NCBI GenBank assembly: GCA_016234845.1
Contig: JACRNP010000030.1
Coordinates: 1 to 64,000, forward strand
Direction of reading: 5' to 3'
DNA from: Deltaproteobacteria bacterium
Lineage (GTDB): Bacteria; Desulfobacterota; Deferrimicrobia; Deferrimicrobiales; Deferrimicrobiaceae
DNA length: 64,000 nt
The position numbers and the translations under genes are program-made. How positions within the stretch are numbered: the stretch's first letter is position 1; each line of letters opens with the position of its first letter. The notes beneath the pieces are model-generated. The model did no database searches. It was not told where the DNA came from and saw only the letters and a program-made list of their open reading frames with translations. Shown piece by piece: positions 360 to 34,720 of the stretch.

Positions 360-1374
360 TGGCACGCCCCCCGTTTCCGCACCCCGGGTTCATGCGGGAG
401 GCGGTTCGGCTGGCGAGGAAGGGGCTCGGGCGGACCGCGCCGAATCCGGCCGTCGGGGCGGTGGTCGTGCGCGCGGGTCGGATCGTCGGAAAGGGGTACC
501 ACCGGGCGGCGGGGATGCCCCACGCCGAGGTCGTGGCGTTGCTCCAGGCGGGGAGCGCCGCCCGCGGGGCGGACCTGTACGTGACGCTCGAACCGTGCGA
601 CCACCACGGGCGCACCGGGCCGTGCACGGCGGCGAGGCCGGCGTCACGGTCCACGAAGGGCTCCTTCAGGCGGCGGCGGCGGAAATCACCCGCGGGTTCC
701 GCCGATGGGTCGTGTCCGGGGCCCCGTTCGTGACGCTGAAGCTCGCGATATCCCTCGACGGACAGATCGCCTCGGCCGCGGGCGACTCCCGATGGATCTC
801 GGGCGAGCCGGCGAGGCATCGCGTCCACCGGATGCGGTCGGAGGCGGACGCCGTGATGGTGGGGGGCGGCACGGCGCGGCGGGACGACCCGCGGTTGACC
901 GCCCGTTATCCGGGAAGCCGGCAGCCGAAACGGGTGGTGCTGACCTCCCGCCCCGCCGAACTGCTCCAGCGGCGCATGCTCCGGGAGGAGGGCGGCGAGG
1001 TGATCGTCGCCTGCCCGACCGGGATCGGGAAGCGCGACGTGGAGGCGCTCCGGTCGCTGGGAGCCCGCGTCCTCCCGTTGCCTTCGCGCCAGGGGAAGGT
1101 GCGGGCGCGCGATTTCCTCGCCGCGCTGGGCGCGGAAGGCGTCACCTCCCTGCTGGTCGAGGGGGGAGGCGGGATCGCGGGGTGGCTCGCGGAGGAGGGA
1201 GCGGTCGACCGGTACGTCGTGTACGTCGCGCCGCTCCTGCTGGGAGAGGGCGTCCGCGCGGTTTCCGGGTGGGCGGCGAAATCCCCCGCCGCGGGGAAAC
1301 GCCTCGTTTTCACCTCCGTCCGCCGCGTCGGGCCCGACATCGAGATCACGGCGGAACCGGCGGAGGGACGATAA
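359..1374 (+). pseudogene. ribD: Riboflavin biosynthesis protein RibD (deaminase + reductase), reading frame interrupted: deaminase domain in one frame (359..~640), reductase in the +2 frame (595..1374); ~26-28 residues missing at the junction
   Basis: Frame-2 ORF reads MREAVRLARKGLGRTAPNPAVGAVVV...HAEVVAL...YVTLEPCDHHGRTGPCTAA then runs into nonsense. Frame-1 ORF resumes at GEAGVTVHEGLL...VTLKLAISLDGQIA (reductase). The segment corresponding to ~LIxAGVxRVVxAxxDPNPxVAGxG is absent. Confidence 0.6.
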
Positions 1375-2031: not shown

Positions 2032-3237
<1,206 letters not shown>

Positions 3238-3248
3238 GAGGCTATAGT

Positions 3249-3710
3249 ATGGCGCGCGTCATCGAAGGGGATCTGCAGGGACAGGGGGTCAAGGTCGCGA
3301 TCGTCGTGTCGCGATTCAACAGCTTCATCACCGAGCGCCTGCAGGACGGCGCGCTCGACGCCCTGCGGCGGCACGGCGTGGACGAGAAGGGGATCACCGT
3401 GATCAAGGTCCCGGGGGCGTTCGAGCTCCCCCTGGCGGTTCGCAAGGTCGCCGGCCAGAAGGTCGACGCCGTGATCGCGCTCGGGGCGCTCATCCGCGGC
3501 GGAACCCCGCACTTCGACTACCTGAGCGCCGAGGTGACCAAGGGCGTCGCGCAGGCGATGCTCGACACGGGGGTCCCGGTCTCGTTCGGCGTGCTCACCA
3601 CCGACACGGTGGAACAGGCGATCGAGCGGGCGGGAACCAAGGCCGGGAACAAGGGCGCCGAAGCGGCGCAGTCCGCGCTGGAGATGGTCAGCCTGCTCCG
3701 GAAGATGTAG
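3249..3710 (+). CDS. ribH: 6,7-dimethyl-8-ribityllumazine synthase
   Basis: [31 protein letters not shown]...VPGAFELP; 153 aa. Confidence 0.92.
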
Positions 3711-15322: not shown

Positions 15323-15801
15323 CCCGCCCGGCGGATGCATACCGGGTGTCGGTCCGCCAGGACCTTCGTCCCGCGGCGGTTTCGGGCCGACGGGTGAAGC
15401 GGTTCGCGATCCGCGCCCTTTCGATTCTTCCCGCCGCGGGCGCCGACCTGCGCATCCGGATCGTCGGCGACGTCGCCATCGCCCGGTGGAACCGGGAGTT
15501 CCTCGGGCGCGACCGGCCGACGAACGTGATCTCCTTCCCCGACGAGGAGCGAGTTCCCGCCCGCGGAGGCATCGTCTCCGGCGACATCCTCGTATCCGCC
15601 CCCACCTGCCTCGCGCAGACGGAAGGGTGGAGGGAGACCCCGGAGGCGCGCGTCTTCTTCTTCGTCCTCCACGGCATCCTCCACCTTGCCGGGTACGACC
15701 ACGAGCCGGGGGGTGCCGACGCCCGAAGGATGCGCCGGCGGGAGCTCCAGCTGTACCGCCGTGTCCTGGCGGAAGACCGCAGACAGTCGGGTGCTGCGTG
15801 A
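15319..15801 (+). CDS. ybeY: Endoribonuclease YbeY (rRNA maturation factor)
   Basis: Metal-binding motif HGILHLAGYDH; start assigned to TTG at 15319 (GTG ~15346 is an alternative). Confidence 0.85.
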   Translation: MTRPADAYRVSVRQDLRPAAVSGRRVKRFAIRALSILPAAGADLRIRIVGDVAIARWNREFLGRDRPTNVISFPDEERVPARGGIVSGDILVSAPTCLAQTEGWRETPEARVFFFVLHGILHLAGYDHEPGGADARRMRRRELQLYRRVLAEDRRQSGAA

Positions 15802-15856
15802 TTGTCCGGTGCTCGGGCTCGCCCTATGCACAGAGCGCACGTGATATCGATGCAGG

Positions 15857-17431
15857 GTGAGCGATTGCATGGGTAGAATGCGGACGCTGCTCGCCGGCGG
15901 GCTGTTCGTCGCCGCGTACGTTCTCGGGACGCCGGGGTACGACGTGCCGGGGCTGCCGCTGCTGTGCATGGCGCCGTTTCTGGCGGTTGCCTCCGGCGCC
16001 GCATCGGTTCGGGCCGCCGCCTGGAGGGGATGGATCGCCGGGACCGCCGCGAGCGTCCCGCTCTACTACTGGATCGCGTACACGGTCGCCGTGGAGGGGA
16101 AGCTCGGGTGGCCCCTCGGCGCCCTCGCGGCTTTCCTCGTGTCCGCCTACATCGGCGCGTACTTTTCGGTCGCCGCCGCTGCCGCCCGGCGACTGGAGGA
16201 CCGCTTCGGAGAGCGCGGGCTGTGGGTGTTTCCGCTCGCGTGGACGGCGCTGGAGCTCGCGCGCACGTACCTTTTCACGGGATTTCCATGGATGCTCCTG
16301 GGGTACGCGCTCGCGGGAAGCCCGCCGTTTCGCCAGGCGGCGGACCTGGCCGGGGTTCTCGGCCTCTCGTTCCTCGCCTGCCTTTCGGGCACCGCCCTGT
16401 TCCTCGCCGGAAGACGGCTCTCCGCCGGCTCCGTACGCACCGCGGCGCTCGCGGTTCTGCCCGGGCTGGCCGTCGTCCTCTTTCTCGCCGGATACGGCCG
16501 CCTCGCCCTGGCGGATCGCGCGAAGGCGGGATCCGGCCGGGAGCCGCTCAAGGTCGCCATCGCGCAGGGCGGGATCGACCAGTCGGCCAAATGGGAGCCG
16601 GGGAACCAGGCGCGCACGCTGGACCTGTACGAGGAACTGACGGTCCGGGCGCGCGACGACGGGGCCCGGATCGTCGTGTGGCCGGAAACGGCGGCCCCCT
16701 TCTTCTACGGGTGGGAACGGGAGTTGACGCGCCGTCTCGACGGGATCGCCGCTCGCGTGGGGATCCCGCTCATCTTCGGGGCGCCGTGGTACGACCCGGC
16801 CGGCGGCGGGAAATATTACAACAGCGTCTTCCACATGGACGCGCGCGGGCTGGTCCTGGGACGATACGACAAGCGGCACCTCGTGCCGTTCGGCGAATAC
16901 ATCCCTCTCCGGACGATCCTCTTCTTCCTCCGCAAGCTGACGGTGGGGGACGAGGATTTCACCGCGGGGACGAGCTCCTCCCTGTTCCGGGTGGATGGCA
17001 CCCTGTTGTCGGCGTCGGTGTGCTACGAGGCGGTCTTCCCGGCGATCTCCCGGGAGGGGGTTCGGGACGGGGCGGGGTGGCTGGTGAACGTCACGAACGA
17101 CGCGTGGTTCGGCGACACGGTCGCGCCCCGGCAGCACCTGGCGATGGCCCGGCTGCGGTGCGTGGAGCTGCGGCGCCCGATGGTCCGCGCGGCCAACTCC
17201 GGCATCAGCGCCGTCGTGGACTCCGGCGGCGAAATCGTCGCGTCCGTCGGGCTTTTCCGCCGCGGTGTCGTCGTCGCGGAGGTCGCGCCGGGGATTGGGG
17301 AGACCCTGTACGCAAAAACTGGGGAAATATTTGGGTTTTCCTGTATTATAATCACCGTTTTGACGCTATTTTTCCCTATGAGAGGACCCCATGGCTTCCG
17401 GATTGCTGGTGGAAAAGACCGCGGCGCTTGA
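15857..17431 (+). CDS. lnt: Apolipoprotein N-acyltransferase
   Basis: 524 aa; N-terminal polytopic region plus C-terminal CN-hydrolase domain (VWPETA...VCYE). The 3' end overlaps the prfB start by ~40 nt. Confidence 0.9.
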
Positions 17432-21912: not shown

Positions 21913-24194
21913 CCGCCCGCCGGATCGCCGCGACGCTGCTTGCGGGAATCCTGTGGGCGTCGCTCCTTGCCGCTCCGATTCGCGCGGAGGGATTTCGCGT
22001 CTCCGCCATCGAGGTCCGGGGGGCGAAGCGGGTGTCCCCCGACGCGGTCCTCAAGGCGATGACGACCCGGGCCGGCCAGGAGCTCGATTTCGCCAGGGTG
22101 CGGGAGGACGTCAAGGCGATCTACCGCCTGGGGTATTTCCGGGACGTGACGTTCGACGCCGAGGAGGTACCGGGGGGGTACCGGCTGACCGTAGTGGTGT
22201 CCGAGAAGCCGATCGTGGGCTCGATCGCCATCGAAGGGAACAAGGACGTCGAAACGACCGACCTTCGAGCCGCCGTCACGGTGAAGGAACGGTCCCTCTT
22301 CCAGGAGGAAAAGGTAAAGGAATCCGTCAAGAAATTACAGGAACTGTGCCAAAACAAAGGGTTTGTGGATTCTGTCGTTGAGGCTGCCGTGTCGGAGGAC
22401 GCCGAGGGGGCGCTCCGGGTTACGTTCCGGGTGACGGAAGGGCCGAAGCTGAAGATCGAGAAGATCGTTGTGACGGGCAGCCTCTTCTTCTCCCCGAAGC
22501 AGATCCGCAAGCAGATGGACACCTCCGAGAAGGGGTTCTTCTCCTTCATCACCGATTCCGGGACGTTCAAGAAGGACGTCCTGGAGAACGACATCCGGAA
22601 GATCGAGGCGCTCTATCAGAACAACGGGTTCCTCGAATCCAAGGTGTTCGACCCGGAGATCGCCCGGGGCGGGAAGGGACTGCTCCTCACCATCCGGGTG
22701 TTCGAGGGGAAGCAGTTCCGGATCGGCGAGATCCGGTTCGCCGGCGAATCGGGCATGACCGAGGAGAGGCTTCGTTCCTCCGTGAAGCTTTCGACCGGCG
22801 AGCTTTTCAACCGCGAAAAGCTCCTCTCCGACCTGCTCGCGTTGACCACGCTCGTGAACGACGAGGGGTACGCCCAGGCGCTGGTCTCCCCGGGGGTGGA
22901 GAAGCGGAAGGAGTACCCGGTCGCCGACGTCACCTACCGGTTCGAGCGGGGAGGGAAATTCCGGTTCGGCAAGGTGGAGGTCACCGGGAACACCAAGACC
23001 CTCGACCGCGTCGTCCGCCGGAACCTGGAGGTGTCCGACGGGCAGACGTACACCGCCACGGGCCTGAAGGAGAGCAAGGAGAACCTGACGCGGAGCTCCT
23101 ACTTCAAGGACGTGAAGATCAGCACGGCTCCGTCCGCGACTCCGGGCCTGATGGACGTGAAGGTCGACGTGCAGGAAGGGCCCACGGGCACCCTGTCGGG
23201 CGGGCTCGGATACAGCTCGCTCGACAAGATCTTCGGGGTGGTGCAGCTGACCGAGAACAACCTGTTCGGCCGCGGCTGGAAGGCGTCGCTCAACTCTCAG
23301 TTCGGCGCGCGCCGCACGACCTTCTCACTCGATTTCCGCGATCCGCACTTCCTCGACACCGACTTCTCGCTGCTGCTCTCCGCGTACAAGACGAAGGTGC
23401 GGTACAACGATTTCGAGAAGGACTCCCAGGGGGGAAGGGCCGGCATCGGGTACAACATCAGCCGCTTCACCAACGCGAGCATGAGCTTCCGGAGCGACTC
23501 CACGCGGATCCTGGGGATCTCCGGAACGGTGCCGACCCGGACGGTGGAGGACGAGATCGTGAAGGGGCTGCAGCGGACGCGGAGCGTGGCCTTCAACGTG
23601 ACCCGGAACAGCACCGACCGGTACATCGATCCCTCGAAGGGATCCCTGCAGGCCGCCACCCTGGAATACGCGGGCGGGCCGATGGGCGGGGACAGCGAGT
23701 TCGTGAAATATTTCCTGAACTCGAAGGCGTTCCACCCGGTCACCGCCTCCACGGTCTTCTCCTGGAACCTGCTGTGGGGGCACGTGATCCCCATGTACGG
23801 CGGCTGGGCCGGAGGAGAAGTGCCCCTGTTCGAACGGTTCTTCCTCGGAGGCCCCTACAGCGTCCGCGGCTTCCGCTCCCGGTCCCTCTCCCCGAAGGAC
23901 CGGAACACGGGGGAGCTGGTCGGAGGGAACAAGGAACTGATCATGAACCTGGAGTACCAGTTCCCGCTCGTCTCCGAGATCGGGTTCAAGGGCGTGCTGT
24001 TCGCCGACGCCGGGAACTCCTGGGTGCAGGGCGCGTGGCCCGCGAACGACGAGGGGCTGTGGATCGGGTACGGATTCGGCGTCCGGTGGTACTCCCCGAT
24101 GGGGCCGCTCCGGTTCGAGTGGGGCTGGAACCTGAACCGGCCGGCCGGGGAGCCGAAACGGGTGATGGAGTTCACGATCGGAACGGCATTTTAA
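21909..24194 (+). CDS. bamA: Outer membrane protein assembly factor BamA (Omp85)
   Basis: 761 aa; POTRA repeats then beta-barrel ending ...RFEWGWNL...FTIGTAF; GTG overlaps lolD stop. Confidence 0.93.
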   Translation: MTARRIAATLLAGILWASLLAAPIRAEGFRVSAIEVRGAKRVSPDAVLKAMTTRAGQELDFARVREDVKAIYRLGYFRDVTFDAEEVPGGYRLTVVVSEKPIVGSIAIEGNKDVETTDLRAAVTVKERSLFQEEKVKESVKKLQELCQNKGFVDSVVEAAVSEDAEGALRVTFRVTEGPKLKIEKIVVTGSLFFSPKQIRKQMDTSEKGFFSFITDSGTFKKDVLENDIRKIEALYQNNGFLESKVFDPEIARGGKGLLLTIRVFEGKQFRIGEIRFAGESGMTEERLRSSVKLSTGELFNREKLLSDLLALTTLVNDEGYAQALVSPGVEKRKEYPVADVTYRFERGGKFRFGKVEVTGNTKTLDRVVRRNLEVSDGQTYTATGLKESKENLTRSSYFKDVKISTAPSATPGLMDVKVDVQEGPTGTLSGGLGYSSLDKIFGVVQLTENNLFGRGWKASLNSQFGARRTTFSLDFRDPHFLDTDFSLLLSAYKTKVRYNDFEKDSQGGRAGIGYNISRFTNASMSFRSDSTRILGISGTVPTRTVEDEIVKGLQRTRSVAFNVTRNSTDRYIDPSKGSLQAATLEYAGGPMGGDSEFVKYFLNSKAFHPVTASTVFSWNLLWGHVIPMYGGWAGGEVPLFERFFLGGPYSVRGFRSRSLSPKDRNTGELVGGNKELIMNLEYQFPLVSEIGFKGVLFADAGNSWVQGAWPANDEGLWIGYGFGVRWYSPMGPLRFEWGWNLNRPAGEPKRVMEFTIGTAF

Positions 24195-24229
24195 GGGGCG
24201 AAAATACGGTGGTCCAAGGAGCGGGTGCG

Positions 24230-24784
24230 ATGCGGAAAACGGCGATTCCGGTGGTGCTGGCGCTGGCGGTGCTGTTCGCGGGAACGACCTTCGCGGAGGG
24301 GCTTCGCGTGGCGGTCATCGACGTGAACAGGATCCTGAACGAGTCGGAGGCCGGCCTTGCGGCGAAGAAGAAGATGGAGGCGCGCTACGAGGAGCTGAAG
24401 AAGAATCTCGAGGCCCGGCAGGACGAGGCGCGCAAGCTGAAGGACGAGCTCGACAAGCAGAAGGTGATGCTGGGGAAGGAGAAGCTGAAGGAGAAGGAGG
24501 ACGCGCTCCAGGCCAAGGTGAACGAGCTTCGGCAGCTGACCCAGGAAGGGGAGCGGGAGATGCAGGCGCGCCAGGGGGAGCTGACCCGGGACGTGCTGAA
24601 GCGGATCGAGGTGCAGGTCGACGCCGTGGTGAAGGCCGACAAGCTGGACCTCGTGCTGGAGCGGTCCAGCGGGGTGGTCCACTTCAACGATTCGATGGAC
24701 ATCACCGCCAAGGTCCTTGAGCTGGTGAACCGGAGCGACAAGGCGGCGGGGGCGAAAAAGGAGGGGGGCGGTGCCAAAAAGTAG
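24230..24784 (+). CDS. skp: Periplasmic chaperone Skp (OmpH)
   Basis: Signal peptide MRKTAIPVVLALAVLFAGTTFA plus K/E-rich coiled-coil; bamA-skp-lpxD order. Confidence 0.88.
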   Translation: MRKTAIPVVLALAVLFAGTTFAEGLRVAVIDVNRILNESEAGLAAKKKMEARYEELKKNLEARQDEARKLKDELDKQKVMLGKEKLKEKEDALQAKVNELRQLTQEGEREMQARQGELTRDVLKRIEVQVDAVVKADKLDLVLERSSGVVHFNDSMDITAKVLELVNRSDKAAGAKKEGGGAKK

Positions 24785-25587
24785 CCTTCCGCTCTCCGAG
24801 CTGGCCGCCCGGATCGGCGCGGTCCTGCGGGGGCCGGACTCCCCGGTGCGCGGGATCGCTCCGCTCGAGGAGGCGGGGCCGGGCCAGGTCGCGTTCCTGT
24901 CCAATCCCCGGTACGTCCGGCTGGCGCGGGAGACGAAGGCGTCCGCCCTGATCGTCCGGGAGCCGCTGGCCGGCGCCGCGTGCGCATTCCTCCTGTCTCC
25001 CAATCCGTACGATTCGTTCGCGCGCGCCCTGGAGATCTTCCACCCGCCGGTCCGCCCCGCGTCGGGCATCTCCCCGCAGGCGTGCGTCGACCCCGGGGCG
25101 TCCATCGGAAAGGACGTTTCCATCGGCCCGTTCGCCGTCGTCGAGAAGGGGGCGACGGTGGGAGACCGGACCTCCCTGTACGCGGGGGTATACGTCGGCA
25201 CGGGGGCCGCCGTCGGCGACGATTGCGTTCTGTACCCCCGCGTGACCCTGTACGAGGGGGTCCGCGTCGGGAACCGGGCGATCCTGCACGCCGGGTGCGT
25301 GATCGGCAGCGACGGGTTCGGCTTCGCGCCGTCCTCGAAGGGGTTCCGCAAGATCCCGCAGGGCGGGATTCGCGGGGCACATCGAGGTCGGCGACGGCGT
25401 GATGGTGGGGGCGCAGTCGGGGATCGCCGGGTCCGTCGACGCGTCGGAAACCCCGGCGTGGTCGGGGACCCCCGCGATGCCGCACAGGACCTGGCTGAAG
25501 ATGTCGGCGCTGCTGCCGAAGCTCCCGGAGCTGTTCCGCCGGGTGAGAAAGCTGGAAGAGAGAGAATCCGTGAAGGAGGAGGAGTGA
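24771..25587 (+). pseudogene. lpxD: UDP-3-O-acylglucosamine N-acyltransferase LpxD, internally deleted (~70 residues of the left-handed beta-helix missing) with frameshift; N-part in frame 0 (24771..~25375), C-part in +1 frame (..25587)
   Basis: Frame 0: ...HAGCVIGSDGFGFAPSSKGFRKIPQGGIRG then nonsense. +1 frame: GHIEVGDGVMVGAQSGIAGSVDASETPAWSG...LPELFRRVRKLEE (LpxD C-terminus). Total ~272 aa vs ~340 expected. Confidence 0.6.
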
Positions 25588-25588
25588 G

Positions 25589-26047
25589 GTGCTATCCGTC
25601 CAGGAGATCATGGAGCTGTTGCCGCACCGGTACCCGTTTCTCCTCGTGGACCGCATCGTCGAGGAGGAGCCCGGAAAACGGATCGTCGGGATCAAGAACG
25701 TGACGATCAACGAGGCGTTCTTCCAGGGACACTTCCCGGGGCACCCGATCATGCCCGGCGTCCTGGTGATCGAGGCGATCGCGCAGGCCGGCGGGATCCT
25801 CGCCCTCCGCGCGCTCGGGGGGAAGAAGCGGATCGCCTACTTCGCGGGGATCGACGGCTGCAAGTTCCGCCGTCCCGTGGTCCCCGGCGACCAGCTCCGG
25901 CTGGAAGTCACCGTCCTCGCCCACCGGGGCCCCGTGTGGAAGATGCACGGGGAAGCGACGGTCGACGGCGTCCTCGCGGCGAAGGGGGACGTGACCGCCA
26001 CCATCCCCGACGGGGTGGAGGTGCAGGAGCCGGGAGCGTCGATATGA
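25589..26047 (+). CDS. fabZ: 3-hydroxyacyl-[ACP] dehydratase FabZ
   Basis: LLPHRYPFLLVDRI...NEAFFQGHFPGHPIMPGVLVIEA hot-dog motifs. Confidence 0.93.
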   Translation: MLSVQEIMELLPHRYPFLLVDRIVEEEPGKRIVGIKNVTINEAFFQGHFPGHPIMPGVLVIEAIAQAGGILALRALGGKKRIAYFAGIDGCKFRRPVVPGDQLRLEVTVLAHRGPVWKMHGEATVDGVLAAKGDVTATIPDGVEVQEPGASI

Positions 26048-26826
26048 TCCATCCGACCGCCATCATCGACCCGGGAGCGGAGCTCGGGGTGGACGTGACG
26101 GTGGGGCCGTACGCCGTCATCGGCCCCCGGGTGACCATCGGGGACGGCAGCAGCGTCGGTTCCCACGCGGTCATCGAATCCCACGTCCGGATGGGGAAGG
26201 GGAACCGGATCCACTCCTTCGCCTCCGTGGGCGCGATCCCGCAGGACCTGAAGTACAAGGGCGAGGAGACGTGGGTGGAGATGGGCGACGGGAACATCGT
26301 CCGGGAATTCGCCACGGTCAACCGCGGGACGGCCGGAGGCGGGGGGGTGACCCGCATCGGGAGCAACACGCTGGTGATGGCGTACTGCCACCTCGCGCAC
26401 GACTGCATCGTGGGGAGCCGGGTGATCATGGCCAACGCCGCCACCCTGGCGGGCCACGTCACGGTGGAGGACGGAGCGATCGTCGGCGGATTGACCGCCG
26501 TCCACCAGTTCGTCCGGATCGGGAAGCACTGCATCATCGGGGGCCTCTCCGGGGTGGCGCAGGACGTCCCGCCGTACGTCACGGCGGTGGTGTCGAGACC
26601 CCAGCGCGGGTTCGCCCTGTACGGACTGAACCTGATCGGCCTCCGGCGGAACCGGTTCTCCGCGGAGACGATCGCGGCGCTGAAGGCCGCGTTCAAGCTG
26701 ATCTTCCGCGCGGAAGTGCCGATGAAGGAGGCGCTCGAACGCGCGGAGGCGGAGCTGCCGCCGCTGCCGGAGGTGAAGTACCTGATCGAATTCGTCCGGT
26801 CCAGCAAGCGGGGGGTGCTGCGGTAG
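26044..26826 (+). CDS. lpxA: Acyl-[ACP]--UDP-N-acetylglucosamine O-acyltransferase LpxA
   Basis: MIHPTAIIDPGAELG... hexapeptide repeats; ATGA overlap with fabZ. Confidence 0.93.
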   Translation: MIHPTAIIDPGAELGVDVTVGPYAVIGPRVTIGDGSSVGSHAVIESHVRMGKGNRIHSFASVGAIPQDLKYKGEETWVEMGDGNIVREFATVNRGTAGGGGVTRIGSNTLVMAYCHLAHDCIVGSRVIMANAATLAGHVTVEDGAIVGGLTAVHQFVRIGKHCIIGGLSGVAQDVPPYVTAVVSRPQRGFALYGLNLIGLRRNRFSAETIAALKAAFKLIFRAEVPMKEALERAEAELPPLPEVKYLIEFVRSSKRGVLR

Positions 26827-26837
26827 CGGGCGTGTCC

Positions 26838-27992
26838 ATGAAACCGGGCCAGAAGACCCTGTTCCTCCTCTGCGGGGAGCCGTCGGGGGAAGCGTACGCC
26901 GCCCGGGTGGCCCGGGAGTTCCGGCGCCGCCACCCCGGCGCGCCGATGGAGGGGATCGGCGGGGCGCGGCTCGCGGACGAGGGGGTGAAGCTCCTCCTGG
27001 ACTACGGCGGGATCTCGGTCGTCGGGGTGACGGAGGTCCTCACGCACCTCCCGGCGATCCGCTCCGCCCTCGCGGCCGCGACGGACCGCGTCCTGCGCCC
27101 GGACATCGGCGCCGTGGTGCTGGTGGATTACCCGGATTTCAATTTCCGGGTCGGACTTTCGGCGTGGAGGCGCGGCGTTCCCGTGATCTATTACATACCG
27201 CCGCAGGTGTGGGCCTGGCGCACGGGTCGCGCGAAGACCCTGGCGAAGTTCACGCGAGGGGCGGTCGTACTGTTCCCGTTCGAGGAGACCCTGTTGCGAA
27301 AGTTCGGCGTCAACGCGGTGTTCGCCGGCCACCCGCTCCTGGAGGAGCTTGCGCCGTTCCTCGACGCGGACCCCGATCCGGCGCGTTTCGGCCTGCCGGA
27401 GGGGAAGACGGTCGTGGGGCTGCTCCCGGGGAGCCGTCCCGGGGAGATCGAGGCGCACCTCCCGGTCCTCCTGTCCGCGGCGGAGGAGGTCGCACGGGAG
27501 CATCCGGATGTCCACTTCGCGCTGCCGGTGGCGCGCCCCGCGCTGCGGGAGCGGATCGCGCGCCGGCTGTCCGGAACTTCCCTTCCGCTGACCGTGGTGG
27601 ACGAGGGGAGACACCTGCTGTTCCGCGGAATGACCGCGGCGATGGCGGTGTCCGGAACGGTCACCCTCGAGCTCGCCCTGCTGGGGGTCCCGTCGGTCAT
27701 CGTCTATCGCACCTCCTGGGTGACCTACCAGATCGGCCGGCGCCTGGCGAAGGTCCAAAACGTCGGGTTGCCGAACATCGTCGCGGGGGAGCGGTTCCTC
27801 CCCGAGCTCATCCAGGACGACTGCACCGCGGGCCGGATCGCCGCGGCGCTGGGAGGAATGCTCTCCGACGGGCCGCGGCGTCTCGGGCTTCGCGCGCGGT
27901 GCCTCTCCCTGCGGGACCGGCTGCGCGGCCCGGGCCCCACGGGGGCCGTCGTGGACATGCTGGACCGGGAGGCGGCGGGCGCGTGGGCGTGA
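26838..27992 (+). CDS. lpxB: Lipid-A-disaccharide synthase LpxB
   Basis: MKPGQKTLFLLCGEPSGEAYAARV...IYYIPPQVWAWR; 384 aa. Confidence 0.9.
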   Translation: MKPGQKTLFLLCGEPSGEAYAARVAREFRRRHPGAPMEGIGGARLADEGVKLLLDYGGISVVGVTEVLTHLPAIRSALAAATDRVLRPDIGAVVLVDYPDFNFRVGLSAWRRGVPVIYYIPPQVWAWRTGRAKTLAKFTRGAVVLFPFEETLLRKFGVNAVFAGHPLLEELAPFLDADPDPARFGLPEGKTVVGLLPGSRPGEIEAHLPVLLSAAEEVAREHPDVHFALPVARPALRERIARRLSGTSLPLTVVDEGRHLLFRGMTAAMAVSGTVTLELALLGVPSVIVYRTSWVTYQIGRRLAKVQNVGLPNIVAGERFLPELIQDDCTAGRIAAALGGMLSDGPRRLGLRARCLSLRDRLRGPGPTGAVVDMLDREAAGAWA

Positions 27993-29749
27993 CCCTCTAC
28001 AAGCGGATGCTGGGGTACGTTCGTCCGTACGTCTCCCGGCTGCTGCTCGCGATGCTGCTGATGGTCGGCGTGTCGGCCCTGAGCGGATCCACGGCGTTCC
28101 TCGTCAAGCCGATCCTCGACGACATCTTCATCCGCAAGGACGCGACGCGGCTCACCTACATCCCGCTGCTGGTGCTGGCGATCTACCTCTCCCGCGGGTT
28201 CCTCGAATTCGCCCAGGCGTACCTGATGAGCGGGGCGGGGCAGCGGGTGGTTCGCGACATCCGGGACCACCTGTACCGGCACATGCAGTCGCTGTCGCTG
28301 TCGTTCTACCTGAAGAACTCCACCGGCGTGCTCATGTCGCGGGTCCTGAACGACGTCGCCCTCATGCAGAGCGCGATCACCGACGCCGCCACCGGACTCA
28401 TCAAGGACATCTTCACGGCCGCTTTCCTCGTCTTCGTCATCTTCTACCGCGACTGGCGGCTGGCGCTGGTCGCGCTGGTGGCGTTCCCGCTCGCGTTCTG
28501 GCCCATCGCCCGCTTCGGCCGCAGGCTGCGCAGGACCAGCACGCAGGCGCAGGAGATCACCGGGGGGCTTACGTCCCACCTGCAGGAAACGATCAGCGGC
28601 GCGAAGCTCGTGAAGTCGTTCGGCGCCGAGGGGTACGAGGTCGAGCGGTTCGCCACCCGCAACCAGGAGCTGTTCCGCCTCAGCATGAAGGTGGTGAAGG
28701 TGCAGGCGATGACCTCGCCGCTCTCCGAGACGTTCGCCGGCGTCGGGGCGGCGGCGGTGATCTATTACGGCGGGTACAGCGTCGTCTCGGGCCACAGCAC
28801 GCCGGGCAACTTCTTCTCCTTCATGACCGCGCTCTTCATGCTGTACGAGCCGGTCAAGCGTCTTTCGCGCATCAACAACGTCGTGCAGCAGGGGATCGCC
28901 GCGGGAACCCGCGTGTTCGAGGTGATCGACACGCTTCCGGAAGTCCGCGAGAAGGAGGACGCGGTCGAGCTGCCGCCGATCCGGGACGGGATCGAATTCT
29001 CGCACGTGGACTTCCGGTACGCGGAGGAGGGCGATCCGGTCCTCACGGACGTCGATTTCCGCGTCCCCGCGGGGACGATGGTCGCCATCGTCGGTTCGAG
29101 CGGCGCCGGGAAGACGACCCTGGTCGACCTCATTCCCCGATTCTACGATCCGAAGGCCGGTTCCATCCGGGTCGACGGGGTCGACATCCGGGACGCGACC
29201 GTTTCGTCCCTGCGCGCCCAGATCGCGGTCGTCAGCCAGCACACGATCCTGTTCAACGACACCGTGCGGAACAACATCGCCTACGGGATCCCCGACGCCC
29301 CGATGGAAAGGGTGGCGGAGGCGGCGCGCCGCGCGAACGCCCACGCGTTCGTCGAGCGGATGCCGGAGGGATACGAGACCGTGGTCGGAGAGCAGGGACT
29401 TCGCCTTTCCGGCGGCGAGCGGCAGCGCCTGGCGATCGCCCGCGCCCTCCTGAAGGACGCTCCGATCCTCATCCTCGACGAGGCGACCTCCGCGCTCGAC
29501 TCGGAGTCCGAACGCGTGGTCCAGGACGCCCTCGACACGCTGATGCGCGGGCGCACCACGTTCGTCATCGCCCACCGCCTCTCCACCGTGCGCAACGCCG
29601 ACGTGATCCTGGTGATCGAGGGGGGGAGGATCGTGGAGCGGGGGAGGCACGACGAACTGCTCGCGACGGAGTCGCGGTACCGCGCCTTCTACCACAAGCA
29701 GTTCGAGGAGAGAAGGAACGATCCGGCCACCGCGTCCGGGAAAGGGTGA
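27989..29749 (+). CDS. msbA: Lipid A export ATP-binding/permease MsbA
   Basis: 6-TM exporter domain plus NBD (GSSGAGKTT, LSGGERQR, ILILDEATSALD); GTGA overlap with lpxB. Confidence 0.9.
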   Translation: MTLYKRMLGYVRPYVSRLLLAMLLMVGVSALSGSTAFLVKPILDDIFIRKDATRLTYIPLLVLAIYLSRGFLEFAQAYLMSGAGQRVVRDIRDHLYRHMQSLSLSFYLKNSTGVLMSRVLNDVALMQSAITDAATGLIKDIFTAAFLVFVIFYRDWRLALVALVAFPLAFWPIARFGRRLRRTSTQAQEITGGLTSHLQETISGAKLVKSFGAEGYEVERFATRNQELFRLSMKVVKVQAMTSPLSETFAGVGAAAVIYYGGYSVVSGHSTPGNFFSFMTALFMLYEPVKRLSRINNVVQQGIAAGTRVFEVIDTLPEVREKEDAVELPPIRDGIEFSHVDFRYAEEGDPVLTDVDFRVPAGTMVAIVGSSGAGKTTLVDLIPRFYDPKAGSIRVDGVDIRDATVSSLRAQIAVVSQHTILFNDTVRNNIAYGIPDAPMERVAEAARRANAHAFVERMPEGYETVVGEQGLRLSGGERQRLAIARALLKDAPILILDEATSALDSESERVVQDALDTLMRGRTTFVIAHRLSTVRNADVILVIEGGRIVERGRHDELLATESRYRAFYHKQFEERRNDPATASGKG

Positions 29750-29753
29750 CCGG

Positions 29754-31088
29754 TTGGCCCGCCCGTTTCTCCCCGGGTGCCCCGGGCACGTCCTCTACAA
29801 CGCCGCCGTCGCGGTGGTCCTGACGGCGGGGGTCCCCCTGTGGCTCCCGTGGCTTCTCGTCTCGCGGAAACGACGCGTCAACTTCCCGGAACGGCTGGGG
29901 ATTCGCGGCGTGCCGGACGCCCGTCCGCGGGATGCCCGCCCCGCGGTCTGGGTGCACGCCGTCTCGGTGGGGGAGACGCTCGCGTCGGTTCCCCTGCTGC
30001 GGGAACTGCGGAGGGTCGTCCCCGATGCGCGGATCGCGCTCTCGAACGTGACGGTCACCGGGCGGGATACGGCGGAGAAGGCGCTTTCGGACGTCGTCGA
30101 CCAGAGGTTCTACTTCCCGTTCGACCTGCCCGGCCTCTGCGGAAAGTTCCTGGACCGCCTCCGGCCGGACGCGGTCGTCATCGTGGAAACGGAGATCTGG
30201 CCCAACTTCCTCGCGGAGTGCGCGCGGCGGGGAGTCCCCGTGGTGATCGTCAACGGTCGCCTCTCCGAACGCTCCTTCCGCGGGTACCTGCGTCTCCGCC
30301 GGTTTTTCGCGCCGGTGCTGCGCACGGTCCGGACGATCTCCGCCCAGTCGCGGGAAGACGCCGACCGGTTCATCGCCCTCGGCGCGCTGGAAGGGGCGGT
30401 GGAGGTAGGCGGAAATCTCAAGTTCGACGTTTCCCCGCCCCGGGGAGCGGCATCCACCCTTTCCGTGCTGCTCCAGTCGGAGAGGCGTTCCGGCACCCGC
30501 TGGATCGTCGCGGGATCCACGCACGAGGGGGAGGAGGCGGCGGTCCTCCGGTCATACCTCTCGGCGCGCGAGGCGAATCCCTCCCTCAAGCTCCTGCTGG
30601 CTCCCCGCCATCCCGAACGGTTCGAGCCGGTTTTCGCCCTGGCCCGCCAGGCCGGCGTGCGCGTCGCGCGCCGGACGGAGATCGCGGAAGGGGATACCGC
30701 GCTGGACGCGGAGGTGCTGCTGCTGGACACGGTGGGAGAACTCTCCAGCGCCTACGCGGCGGCGGGACTCGCGTTCGTCGGGGGGAGCCTCGTCCCGAAA
30801 GGCGGCCACAACGTGCTGGAGCCCGCGTGGCACGGGATCCCTACGGTGGTGGGGCCGCACATGGAGAATTTCCGGGAGATCGCGGCGGCGTTCCTGGCGG
30901 CAGGCGCACTGGTCCAGGTCCCGGACGAGGACGGCTTCGCCGCCGTCGTGGTCCGGTTCGCCTCCAATCCGTCCTCCTTCGAAGGTGTCGGGCGGAGAGG
31001 CCGCGAGCTTCTCGAGTCGTTCCGCGGCGCCACGGAGAAGAACGCGGCGGCGGTCCTCTCCGCGATCGGACGCGGGGGGCGAACGTGA
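29754..31088 (+). CDS. waaA: 3-deoxy-D-manno-octulosonic acid transferase (Kdo transferase)
   Basis: 444 aa; WVHAVSVGE...EIWPNF... typical KdtA. Confidence 0.88.
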   Translation: MARPFLPGCPGHVLYNAAVAVVLTAGVPLWLPWLLVSRKRRVNFPERLGIRGVPDARPRDARPAVWVHAVSVGETLASVPLLRELRRVVPDARIALSNVTVTGRDTAEKALSDVVDQRFYFPFDLPGLCGKFLDRLRPDAVVIVETEIWPNFLAECARRGVPVVIVNGRLSERSFRGYLRLRRFFAPVLRTVRTISAQSREDADRFIALGALEGAVEVGGNLKFDVSPPRGAASTLSVLLQSERRSGTRWIVAGSTHEGEEAAVLRSYLSAREANPSLKLLLAPRHPERFEPVFALARQAGVRVARRTEIAEGDTALDAEVLLLDTVGELSSAYAAAGLAFVGGSLVPKGGHNVLEPAWHGIPTVVGPHMENFREIAAAFLAAGALVQVPDEDGFAAVVVRFASNPSSFEGVGRRGRELLESFRGATEKNAAAVLSAIGRGGRT

Positions 31089-32074
31089 TCTTCGGCGCGG
31101 CGGCGCGCGTGCGAAGGAGGCTGTATTCCAGCGGATTCCTGCGTGGGGAGCGTCTTCCCCGCCCCGTGGTGAGCGTCGGGAACCTCTCCCTGGGAGGCGC
31201 GGGGAAGACCCCGCACGTGATCCACCTCGCGAGGTGGCTCACGGAAAGGGGACGCCGCGTCGCGATCCTTTCGCGGGGATACGGTAGGGCGACGCGGGGC
31301 GTTCGCTGGGTGTCGGACGGAGAGGGAAGGATCGGCGGATCGGCCGAATGCGGCGACGAACCGGTGCTGATGGCGCGGAGGCTCCCGGGGATCCCCGTCG
31401 CGGTCGGCGAATCGCGCGCGGCGGCCGGACGGGAGATCCTCGCCCGGCGGCCCGTGGATGTATTTCTCCTCGACGACGGGTTCCAGCACCTGCCGCTCCA
31501 AAGGGATTTCGACCTGCTGCTCGTCGATTGCCCGCGGGGGATTCGAGGCCATGGGACGGCGCCGTTCGGGCCGCTCCGGGAACCCCCGAGCCACGCGCGG
31601 TTCGCGGACGGGCTCGTCGTGACGAAGTGCCCGGACGCCGCGGCGGGAGAGGCGGTCGCCCGATCGGTGCCGGTTCGGGCCGGCTGCCCGTCGGCGACGT
31701 CGCGGTTCACGCCGGGGGAGATCGTCGGAGCGGCCGGCCGGGAGATTCCGGATTTTCCGCCGGGCGCCGAACTGTTCGGGTTCTCCGGCCTGGCGCGCAA
31801 CGGGCAGTTCCGCGAAACCCTTGCGGCCGCCGGATTCCGGGTCCGCGGGTTCATCGGATTTCCCGATCATCACGCCTACGGGCACCGGGACCTTGCGCGG
31901 ATCGCCCGGGAGTCCGCCGGGCTCCCGGTCCTCACCACGGAGAAGGACGCGGTCCGCCTCCCCGCGGACGTCCCGTTCCCGGTCGGCGCCCTGCGGGTGG
32001 AGGTCGAGTACCTTTCCGGATGGGAAGGGCTTTCGTGCGCGATCCTCGATCGGGTCGAAGGGGGCGGAGCGTGA
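31085..32074 (+). CDS. lpxK: Tetraacyldisaccharide 4'-kinase LpxK
   Basis: P-loop VVSVGNLSLGGAGKTP; ...DDGFQH...; GTGA overlap with waaA. Confidence 0.9.
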   Translation: MIFGAAARVRRRLYSSGFLRGERLPRPVVSVGNLSLGGAGKTPHVIHLARWLTERGRRVAILSRGYGRATRGVRWVSDGEGRIGGSAECGDEPVLMARRLPGIPVAVGESRAAAGREILARRPVDVFLLDDGFQHLPLQRDFDLLLVDCPRGIRGHGTAPFGPLREPPSHARFADGLVVTKCPDAAAGEAVARSVPVRAGCPSATSRFTPGEIVGAAGREIPDFPPGAELFGFSGLARNGQFRETLAAAGFRVRGFIGFPDHHAYGHRDLARIARESAGLPVLTTEKDAVRLPADVPFPVGALRVEVEYLSGWEGLSCAILDRVEGGGA

Positions 32075-32976
32075 AGGAGAAGCTGGCCCGCCTCCTGCTG
32101 CGGATCCTCGAGTCGGTGCCGCTCCCGCTGCTGGCGGTTTTCTGCGAGACGGTGATGCTCGCGGTCTGGCGGGCGGACCGGAAGCACCGGAGGATCGGAC
32201 GGATCAACCTGCGGATCGCGTTTCCGGAGATGGGGGACGCGGAGGCCGCGCGGATCATCCGGACCTGCTACGTCCGGATGGGCACCGCCGCCGCGGAGTT
32301 CATCCACATCCCGAGGATGGACGACGCTTACGTGCGGGAGCATTTCCGGATCGAGGGGGCAGGGCACGTCCGGGAATCGATGGAGGAGCGGAAGCAGCCC
32401 GCAATGGTCATGACCGGACACTTCGGGAACTGGGAGCTGCTCTCCCACGTCTACGGCCTGAACATCGCCCCCGTCGCGTTCATCGTCCGGCCGCTGAAAA
32501 GCGCGATCCTGGACCGGATCGTGACGGAGCGGAGGGAGTGGGGCGGCAACATCGTCATCCGCAAGGAGGAATCCGCGAAGTCCGTGGTGAAGATCCTGCG
32601 CAGGAACATCCTGGTGGGGATCCTGATCGACCAGAACGTGGACCGTCACAAGGGGGTCCTCGTGGATTTCTTCACGCGCAAGGCGTACACCACGGACGGA
32701 ATCGCGCGGCTGGCGCTGTCCATGCGCGCGGCCGTCCACACCGGATTCATCTTCCGGGATCCGGAGAGGAAATTCCACCACGTGCTCCGGTTCGGCCCAC
32801 CGGTCGCGATCGACTACGACGCTCCGAGGGACGACGAGGTGCTCCGCGTGACGCGGCGGTGCAACGAGGAGCTGGAGAAGGCGATCCGGGAGGCCCCGGA
32901 CCAGTGGCTCTGGTTCCATCGCCGCTGGAAGACGCGCCCCCCCGGGGAGCCGGACATCTACGGGGAGGCGCGTTGA
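32071..32976 (+). CDS. lpxL: Lipid A biosynthesis (Kdo)2-lipid IVA acyltransferase (LpxL/HtrB family)
   Basis: HFGNWE acyltransferase motif; ~300 aa; GTGA overlap with lpxK. Confidence 0.8.
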   Translation: MKEKLARLLLRILESVPLPLLAVFCETVMLAVWRADRKHRRIGRINLRIAFPEMGDAEAARIIRTCYVRMGTAAAEFIHIPRMDDAYVREHFRIEGAGHVRESMEERKQPAMVMTGHFGNWELLSHVYGLNIAPVAFIVRPLKSAILDRIVTERREWGGNIVIRKEESAKSVVKILRRNILVGILIDQNVDRHKGVLVDFFTRKAYTTDGIARLALSMRAAVHTGFIFRDPERKFHHVLRFGPPVAIDYDAPRDDEVLRVTRRCNEELEKAIREAPDQWLWFHRRWKTRPPGEPDIYGEAR

Positions 32977-33551
32977 AAGGGATCGTCTTCCTGGACCGGG
33001 ACGGGACGCTGATCGAGGAGACGGGGTACCTGCGCGACCCCGCCGCGGTCCGGATCCTGCCCGGTGCGGTGGAGGGGCTCCGGAGGCTCGCGGGGAAAGG
33101 GTATCTCCTCGCGGTGGTATCGAACCAGGCCGGACTCGCCCGGGGGAAATTCACCCGCGAGGAGATGGATTCCGTCCACCGGGCATTCCTTTCGGCGTTC
33201 CGCAAGGAGGGGGTCGCCTTCGACGCGTGGGAATACTGCCCGCACCACCCGGAGGGGGTGGTGCCGGAGCTGCGGGTGGCGTGCCCGTGCAGGAAACCCG
33301 GGACCGCGATGGCGGAGTCGATCCTTTTTCGCCTCGGGGTGCCGGAATCGTGCCCCCGGTTCATGGTCGGTGATAAAATGAGCGACATCGCGCTGGGCGC
33401 GCGGATCGGGGCGCGGACGGTCCTCGTGGCGACGGGGTACGGTCGCGAGGAGCGGGAGAAGGGGGAGCGGATGGGCGTCGCGCCGGATGTCTTCCTCCCG
33501 GGGATGCGGGAGGCGGCCTTGTGGATCACGGGCGGGGGCGTCCGGTCGTGA
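32973..33551 (+). CDS. gmhB: D,D-heptose 1,7-bisphosphate phosphatase GmhB (HAD superfamily)
   Basis: IVFLDRDGTLIEE (DxDGT), ...VVSNQ..., CPHHP...CRKP zinc motif, ...GDKMSD; TTGA overlap with lpxL. Confidence 0.88.
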   Translation: MKGIVFLDRDGTLIEETGYLRDPAAVRILPGAVEGLRRLAGKGYLLAVVSNQAGLARGKFTREEMDSVHRAFLSAFRKEGVAFDAWEYCPHHPEGVVPELRVACPCRKPGTAMAESILFRLGVPESCPRFMVGDKMSDIALGARIGARTVLVATGYGREEREKGERMGVAPDVFLPGMREAALWITGGGVRS

Positions 33552-34720
33552 GCCGGCGCGACGGGAGGGGACGCGAGGGCCGTCTTCGCCGGTGCCGGCC
33601 GCTGCTGCTGCTTCCGCTGCTGCTCGCACCCGGCTGTTTCCGCGGTGGCCGGGGAATCGAGGGCGGACCGCCTCCATCGCCGCCCGCGACGGTCCGCGCG
33701 GACGCTCCGGACAATGCCTCGAACTCGTGGATCGATCTCAATCCCGTCGTGGTACGACTCGCGGAACCGGAGGCCGATAACGCCGCGGTAGCGGTGCCGG
33801 CTGCCCCTCCCCCCGATGTCCCGGGGAGGATCCCGCCCGGGGCCCCCGCCGAGGCGAAAGAGGAGCCGGCCGTCACCGACGCTGCGCCCCCCGCGGCGGC
33901 GGAACCGTCGAAGGAAACGCTCCCCCCGGAGATCGGGGAAACCCCGTCGGCGGCACACCCCGTCGCGAAAAAACCGAAACCGCACCCTTCGACGCCGCCA
34001 CCGCCCGAGGCGAAGGGGGCTTCGCCGGCGGCCGGTCCGGCCTGGGCGAACGGGAGGGAGGAGCTCGTCTACCGGGTCGACTTCATCGGGATCACGATGG
34101 GGTACGCCCGCTTCCGCTACCAAGGAAAGGTCGCGGTCGGGGGCAAGGTCGCCTACCACCTGAACGTCCGCGCGTGGACGTCGGGGGTTCTGTCGTACAT
34201 CTACCCCGTGAACGAGACCATCGACTACTACCTCGACGCCGAAACGCTCGCGCCTCTCCGGCAGGAGTTCACCCAGCGGGCGAAGCTGCCGGACGACGTC
34301 GCCACATACGAGCAGGACACGGGGAAGATCACGTACCGGTACCGCCGGACCGGGGAGGTTCGCAAGCGCGTCAACGCCGTCCCGATGGTGTACGACCCGG
34401 TGAGCGCCGCCTACTACTTCCGTTGGCGCGATGTGGGAGGGGACGAGAAGTCGAGGAACGTCTACGCGGGACGAAAGGTGTGGCAGATCTCCGCGCGGGT
34501 GCTCGGCAAGGAGCGGATTCGCACGGAAAACGGCGAAATGGACACCGTCGTCATCCGGCCGGTGATCCGCCGGGACGGGAAGCTGGAGGACAAGGGGGAC
34601 CTGAAGATGTGGCTCTCCAGCGACGAACGACGCGTCCCGGTCCGGCTCTACGCGAAGTTCCGGAAAATCCGGGACTGGACGCTGGTCGGGGAACTGGTTC
34701 CGCAACGGGAGGGAGGGTAG
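33548..34720 (+). CDS. DUF3108-family lipoprotein with Pro/Ala-rich linker
   Basis: Lipoprotein signal ...LLLLPLLLAPGC; ~150-aa P/A/E-rich low-complexity linker; conserved C-terminal domain ELVYRVDFIGITMGYARFRYQ... resembling DUF3108. Confidence 0.65.
   Translation: MSRRDGRGREGRLRRCRPLLLLPLLLAPGCFRGGRGIEGGPPPSPPATVRADAPDNASNSWIDLNPVVVRLAEPEADNAAVAVPAAPPPDVPGRIPPGAPAEAKEEPAVTDAAPPAAAEPSKETLPPEIGETPSAAHPVAKKPKPHPSTPPPPEAKGASPAAGPAWANGREELVYRVDFIGITMGYARFRYQGKVAVGGKVAYHLNVRAWTSGVLSYIYPVNETIDYYLDAETLAPLRQEFTQRAKLPDDVATYEQDTGKITYRYRRTGEVRKRVNAVPMVYDPVSAAYYFRWRDVGGDEKSRNVYAGRKVWQISARVLGKERIRTENGEMDTVVIRPVIRRDGKLEDKGDLKMWLSSDERRVPVRLYAKFRKIRDWTLVGELVPQREGG

Follow-up and report, generated by a model that had tools for sequence, protein, structure and literature searches.

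The lpxD gene of the window (the whole 64,000-nt stretch of DNA that was analysed) lacks 218 nt of its coding region, and what remains of its 3′ part is read in a different frame. It is likely that this gap is a local assembly or scaffold-join error in a short-read MAG and not biology. An artefact is the most likely explanation because four independent assemblies contradict the deletion and because ribD, which lies 24 kb from lpxD, is broken in the same way. The main value of the observation is a data-quality flag on the deposited annotation MBI5904460.1.

The window comes from an NCBI MAG contig of 65,616 bp, which is labelled 'Deltaproteobacteria bacterium' and is related to Deferrimicrobium. 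In the list of open reading frames and the three-frame translations, the lpxD frame is opened by a GTG codon at 24771 and stays in frame to approximately 25362. This 5′ frame reads ...FRKIPQGGIRG and ...GSDGFGFAPSSKGFRKIPQGGIRG, followed by arginine-rich nonsense up to 25703. The C-terminal part of LpxD (GHIEVGDGVMVGAQSGIAGSVDA...KLEERESVKEEE) is found in the +1 frame, where the true C-terminus of the protein (GHIEVGDGVMVGAQSGIAGSVDASETPAWSGTPAMPHRTWLKMSALLPKLPELFRRVRKLEERESVKEEE) ends at a stop codon at 25587, two bases before fabZ. The features of the broken gene are as follows:

24771 to 25362, forward strand: 5′ part of lpxD in the original frame, codons 1-197, encoding the uridine-binding domain and the initial turns of the LbetaH domain (PRK00892 positions 3-204 of 345)
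25362 to 25363, forward strand: deletion junction, at which 218 nt of the intact alleles (L001 3164-3381) are absent
25363 to 25587, forward strand: 3′ part of lpxD, shifted to the +1 frame with respect to the 5′ part and comprising codons ~271-344 and the stop codon (PRK00892 positions 275-342 of 345)
25363 to 25703, forward strand: out-of-frame tail of the 310-aa protein MBI5904460.1 (HZB86_02750; ORF 24771 to 25703), which extends 115 nt into fabZ

The size of the loss was obtained by alignment to the intact allele on contig L001. The window equals L001 up to position 3163 and then again from position 3382 on, so exactly 218 nt (3n+2) are lost, corresponding to codons ~198-270 and to profile positions 205-274 of 345. 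The missing stretch comprises approximately 73 residues of the LbetaH domain, including the 'GHN' histidine turn. The internal deletion and frameshift put forward in the original prediction are hence borne out by both the frame structure and the alignment; its estimate of a ~215-nt loss at ~25370-25378 was right in kind and approximately 10 nt off in place, the actual values being 218 nt at 25362/25363. Recoding was also considered and rejected, since the +1 shift is fully explained by the 3n+2 loss relative to alleles of 99.5-99.9% identity, and a programmed frameshift is not needed.

In GenBank, the broken lpxD is annotated as a 310-aa hypothetical protein and carries no pseudogene label. 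The ORF translation exactly matches NCBI protein MBI5904460.1 ('MAG: hypothetical protein HZB86_02750 [Deltaproteobacteria bacterium]'), which consists of 197 true LpxD residues and approximately 113 last residues out of frame. This product is the sole member of its cluster and is on record only from the MAG, that is, the deletion allele was not found in more than one independent data set. The intact product falls into a cluster with members from three other assemblies.

Profile searches show how much of the family is left. The curated cut-offs for LpxD are 207 bits for NCBIfam NF002060 PRK00892 and 242.5 bits for TIGR01853. The N-terminal part scores 196.4 and 161.7 bits, and the C-terminal part 51.4 and 46.9 bits, against PRK00892 and TIGR01853, respectively, so that both fragments lie below both cut-offs; the intact allele of L001 scores 407 and 359 bits. 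The N-terminal uridine-binding domain is present (precomputed Pfam PF04613 match), as is the skp-lpxD-fabZ-lpxA context. Profile positions 205-274 are absent from the window, and a continuous left-handed beta-helix with the catalytic His is not found there. In the intact allele, the lost segment holds the motif 'QVGHNVAIG', which aligns with 'IAHNVQIG' of Pseudomonas aeruginosa LpxD (3PMO) and forms the turn with the catalytic histidine (E. coli H239). The LpxD product as deposited would be inactive.

Using the window's exact FabZ protein and the members of the LpxD cluster, the same locus was found in Logan assemblies of four SRA runs (SRR12113393-96) at 99.5-99.9% nucleotide identity; these runs represent a population of that identity with strain variation and may not be the MAG's own source. 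Contig L001 (SRR12113396, 6480 nt), carries bamA'-skp-lpxD-fabZ-lpxA-lpxB-msbA' and matches the window over 22200-25369 at 99.5% and over 25362-28461 at 99.94%, with the 218 nt between the two blocks missing from the window. A continuous lpxD of 1035 nt and 344 aa is present in L001, L003 (SRR12113394), and L004 (SRR12113393); the fourth contig, L002 (SRR12113395), starts inside the missing segment, covering its 3′ part, and crosses the right junction. L004 agrees with the window at three of the four SNPs in lpxD, to the left as well as to the right of the gap; otherwise, only the junction base and a single additional SNP separate the two. Therefore, an intact form of the window's haplotype exists, and relative to it the window shows no extra substitutions. 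The original prediction had named a continuous full-length lpxD at this locus as the finding that would speak against it, and this was nearly what was seen, in sibling assemblies rather than in reads.

With regard to more distant sequences, the nearest named relatives are Candidatus Deferrimicrobium/Deferrimicrobiaceae MAGs with approximately 70% LpxD identity. A scan of GTDB representative genomes returned LpxD relatives of at most 72% identity and did not return the window's own MAG. Exact-protein look-ups for further sibling contigs with the window's Skp, RibE, and RibBA gave no record.

Two side observations concern the variation around the locus. Between the window and L001, 15 sites differ in the 3.2 kb to the left of the lpxD junction (the junction base excluded) and two in the 3.1 kb to its right. 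This drop in SNP density may be a weak hint that contigs from different strains were joined; bamA may simply vary more, and L004 shows the window's haplotype on both sides. In addition, the Logan contigs of three of the four runs (L002, L003, and L004; SRR12113393-95) span only ~1.1 kb around lpxD. Their ends lie at L001 positions 2492/2520, 3256, and 3632/3645, none of which coincides with the deletion boundaries, and these breaks indicate strain-level branching around lpxD.

The junction itself was compared with the intact alleles base by base. Position 3164 of L001 is a T in every intact allele that covers it (L001, L003, and L004), and the G found in the window at 25363 derives from the right-hand copy of an imperfect repeat at the breakpoints, whose left copy is CAGG[T]CGGGAT and whose right copy is CAGGCGGGAT. 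The junction had been predicted to lie between two similar hexapeptide-repeat units, and this is supported as far as the in-register match goes (10/16, P~0.002); the exact microhomology amounts to 1 nt (one G, P=0.46), no better than chance. No Ns are present at the junction, and the lpxD region has 68% G+C with imperfect repeats. The junction string has no match in JGI metagenome contigs, a collection to which the source sample probably does not belong.

The accompanying suggestion of an assembly collapse of the repeat had to be given up in its simplest form. For repeat collapse in a k-mer graph, the lost segment would have to be flanked by an exact direct repeat no shorter than the smallest k (~21). 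Exact direct repeats in intact lpxD reach 12 nt at most, the longer ones are not used by the deletion, and 1 nt is common to both sides of the junction; k-mer collapse is thereby excluded. With repeats this short, a de Bruijn assembler could not have made the junction by itself, and an artefact therefore requires chimeric reads or a step of scaffolding or gap closing.

The neighbouring envelope genes are annotated as follows:

22032 to 24784, forward strand: bamA and skp, intact (BamA, TIGR03303 positions 15-741 of 741; skp, Pfam OmpH matches on L001 and L006); 22032 is the first in-frame start at or after 21925 chosen by script and may not be the real gene start
25589 to 33551, forward strand: fabZ, lpxA, lpxB, msbA, waaA (kdtA), lpxK, an lpxL-like acyltransferase gene, and gmhB, all full length by NCBIfam profiles

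The claim of an otherwise intact lipid A operon holds, as nine envelope proteins (BamA, FabZ, LpxA, LpxB, MsbA, WaaA, LpxK, the LpxL-like acyltransferase, and GmhB) match their NCBIfam profiles essentially end to end. Skp has no NCBIfam match and was identified solely by precomputed Pfam OmpH matches on the orthologous loci. The segment 25589 to 33551 is collinear with L001 and with L006 (GCA_003598145.1), with no out-of-frame indel, and over approximately 26 kb compared with relatives of ~95% identity such as L006, all other indels are multiples of three or intergenic. One length difference was recorded near the ybeY/lnt boundary, where the window has ~96 nt (15783-15878) and L006, a ~95% relative, has 10 nt (1095-1104). 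Searched by tblastn with the intact protein, the window gave matches to the two lpxD fragments and, at 28% identity, to LpxA, and none to a second lpxD.

When GC3 was plotted by frame over all of the window, one other unexplained frame change stood out, at ~660 in ribD, and no further frame breaks were seen. Downstream of gmhB, the GC3 phase is shifted by the long N-terminal region of a DUF3108-family protein (33521-34720), which is rich in Pro and Ala and of low complexity; the frame change seen there was dismissed as an appearance of the plot, the gene being a single ORF. The lesion in ribD has the following layout:

392 to 1374, forward strand: ribD with an internal out-of-frame deletion, N-terminal part at 392-634 and C-terminal part at 634-1374 in another frame, junction at ~634

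Positions 1-81 and 111-342 of TIGR00326 are present in ribD, and positions 82-110 are missing. By tblastn and blastn, the gene lacks 88 nt (L005 10245-10332), out of frame; the only reference for this deletion is P0124/L005 (JGI 3300007351), the nearest intact relative, with 93% aa identity. At the ribD junction, the microhomology is at most 1 nt and there is no repeat; the junction string, like that of lpxD, was searched for in JGI metagenome contigs, a set that probably does not hold the source sample, and gave no match. The window (~1360-1374) also lacks the 231-nt ribD-ribE spacer of L005 (11058-11289), a 93-96% relative, and the ribD stop overlaps the ribE ATG. No Rfam element was found in this spacer, the absence of which may represent a third lost segment or a natural indel. 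In ribD, the assembly thus contains a second lesion similar to that of lpxD.

Other explanations for the lpxD gap differ mainly in where the junction would have arisen. One strain of the population could truly have lost the segment, and only very recently, through slipped mispairing or microhomology-mediated joining at CAGG(T)CGGGAT / CAGGCGGGAT, so that an lpxD-null variant, lipid A deficient or complemented, coexists with intact strains. A short imperfect direct repeat at the junction (the 10/16 match) is what a slipped-strand deletion would use, and a multi-strain population is indicated by the SNPs among L001-L004 and the window and by the short, fragmented Logan contigs. In a few bacteria, e.g., Acinetobacter baumannii and Neisseria meningitidis, lpxA, lpxC or lpxD null mutants are viable, which also speaks for such an allele. 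However, the exact microhomology is at chance level, the longer exact repeats in the gene were left unused, and the deletion is missing from the four other assemblies and from the JGI contigs (with the reservation on their sampling given above). Furthermore, the catalytic His turn is gone and yet the nine other envelope genes are full length, the unrelated ribD has the same type of lesion within 64 kb, and no substitutions have been added relative to intact L004. A recent allele is accordingly regarded as unlikely. The stronger statement, that an uncultured Deferrimicrobium-like groundwater strain has just lost the catalytic core of LpxD and kept the rest of its lipid A/outer-membrane assembly cluster, is more doubtful still; if true, wild-type strains would be living side by side with a natural variant that either is lipid A deficient or depends on a paralog.

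The junction could instead have been made at the bench, if the polymerase switched templates or chimeras formed while GC-rich hexapeptide-repeat DNA was amplified for the library. In that case, real junction-bearing reads would have been produced and then followed by the assembler. The 68% G+C content with imperfect repeats is favourable to this process, and a de Bruijn assembler without scaffolding would need junction-bearing reads. Nevertheless, such chimeras are rare per locus and must outnumber the true reads at both lpxD and ribD, and the ribD junction is free of any repeat, which makes this origin very improbable. Least credible, to the point of being nearly negligible, is genuine reductive decay with many pseudogenes, in which a paralog or a partner organism would provide the lost function. 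The presence of two broken genes within 64 kb could be read in this way, but outside the deletions lpxD and ribD match intact relatives at 93-99.9% identity, every other gene that was examined has its full length, coding density and GC3 signal are normal, and the window contains no second lpxD. Gene decay accounts far less well than a local assembly error for a pair of frameshifting deletions that hit genes normally indispensable and brought no added substitutions; the same holds for the near absence of exact microhomology at both junctions, the MAG origin, and the intact forms of the haplotype in sibling assemblies.

Three features of a local assembly error, namely the MAG origin, the disagreement of independent assemblies, and the recurrent lesion, are present. 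The original prediction had left the choice between an assembly artefact and a real lesion covered by a paralog; the artefact branch is the one favoured, given the MAG contig, the three continuous assemblies together with the fourth that covers the 3′ segment and the right junction, and the ribD lesion. We infer that software, rather than an event in a cell, gave rise to the junction, and, because a k-mer graph alone cannot make it, that scaffolding or gap handling was the responsible step. Most likely, two contig ends would have been wrongly joined in a region fragmented by strain variation, with which the short ~1.1-kb Logan contigs are compatible. The organism's real lpxD would then be the continuous 344-aa gene of the other assemblies, and the deposited 310-aa hypothetical protein would be an annotation consequence of the error. 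According to Chen et al. (2020, Genome Res 30:315, PMC7111523), MAG scaffolds commonly contain local assembly errors, through which wrong protein sequences are passed on to databases; the authors suspected IDBA-UD output to be especially affected and found 13 such errors in one 1.13-Mb genome. MEGAHIT followed by IDBA-UD scaffolding was used for a groundwater MAG set with similar-looking accessions (He et al. 2021, PMC7906910), and our guess is that the same pipeline stands behind this MAG. By way of that study, neither SRR12113393-96 nor the locus tag HZB86 could be matched to BioProject PRJNA640378.

Metabolic reconstructions built on the MAG would mistake both lipid A synthesis and, through ribD, riboflavin synthesis for incomplete pathways. 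Were the deletion true, an environmental diderm would have lost an early step of lipid A synthesis, of which natural examples are rare; the evidence speaks against this view.

Compared with known LpxD proteins (PRK00892/TIGR01853; PDB 3PMO and 3EH0), the fragments in the window jointly cover the uridine-binding domain, the first and last LbetaH turns, and the C-terminal helix, and the gene sits in the canonical bamA-skp-lpxD-fabZ-lpxA-lpxB order. It differs from the family in lacking ~73 LbetaH residues, including the His of the conserved 'HN' motif, and in that its remainder is frameshifted and both fragments fall under the curated score. The lipid A-deficient lpxA/lpxC/lpxD mutants of A. baumannii and N. 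meningitidis, which are isolates obtained by selection or engineering and confirmed by sequencing and chemistry, resemble the window in that an early lipid A gene is deleted and the remainder of the pathway is intact, whereas the lesion in the window is a MAG consensus contradicted by sibling assemblies. The errors described by Chen et al. (PMC7111523) were defined by no read perfectly supporting the consensus, and the lesion in the window differs from them in being known from assemblies alone and in having a junction without Ns. It is like them in that a short stretch of the window disagrees with independent assemblies and has placed an incorrect protein in a public database, and in that such errors occur roughly once per tens of kb, in a strain-heterogeneous region.
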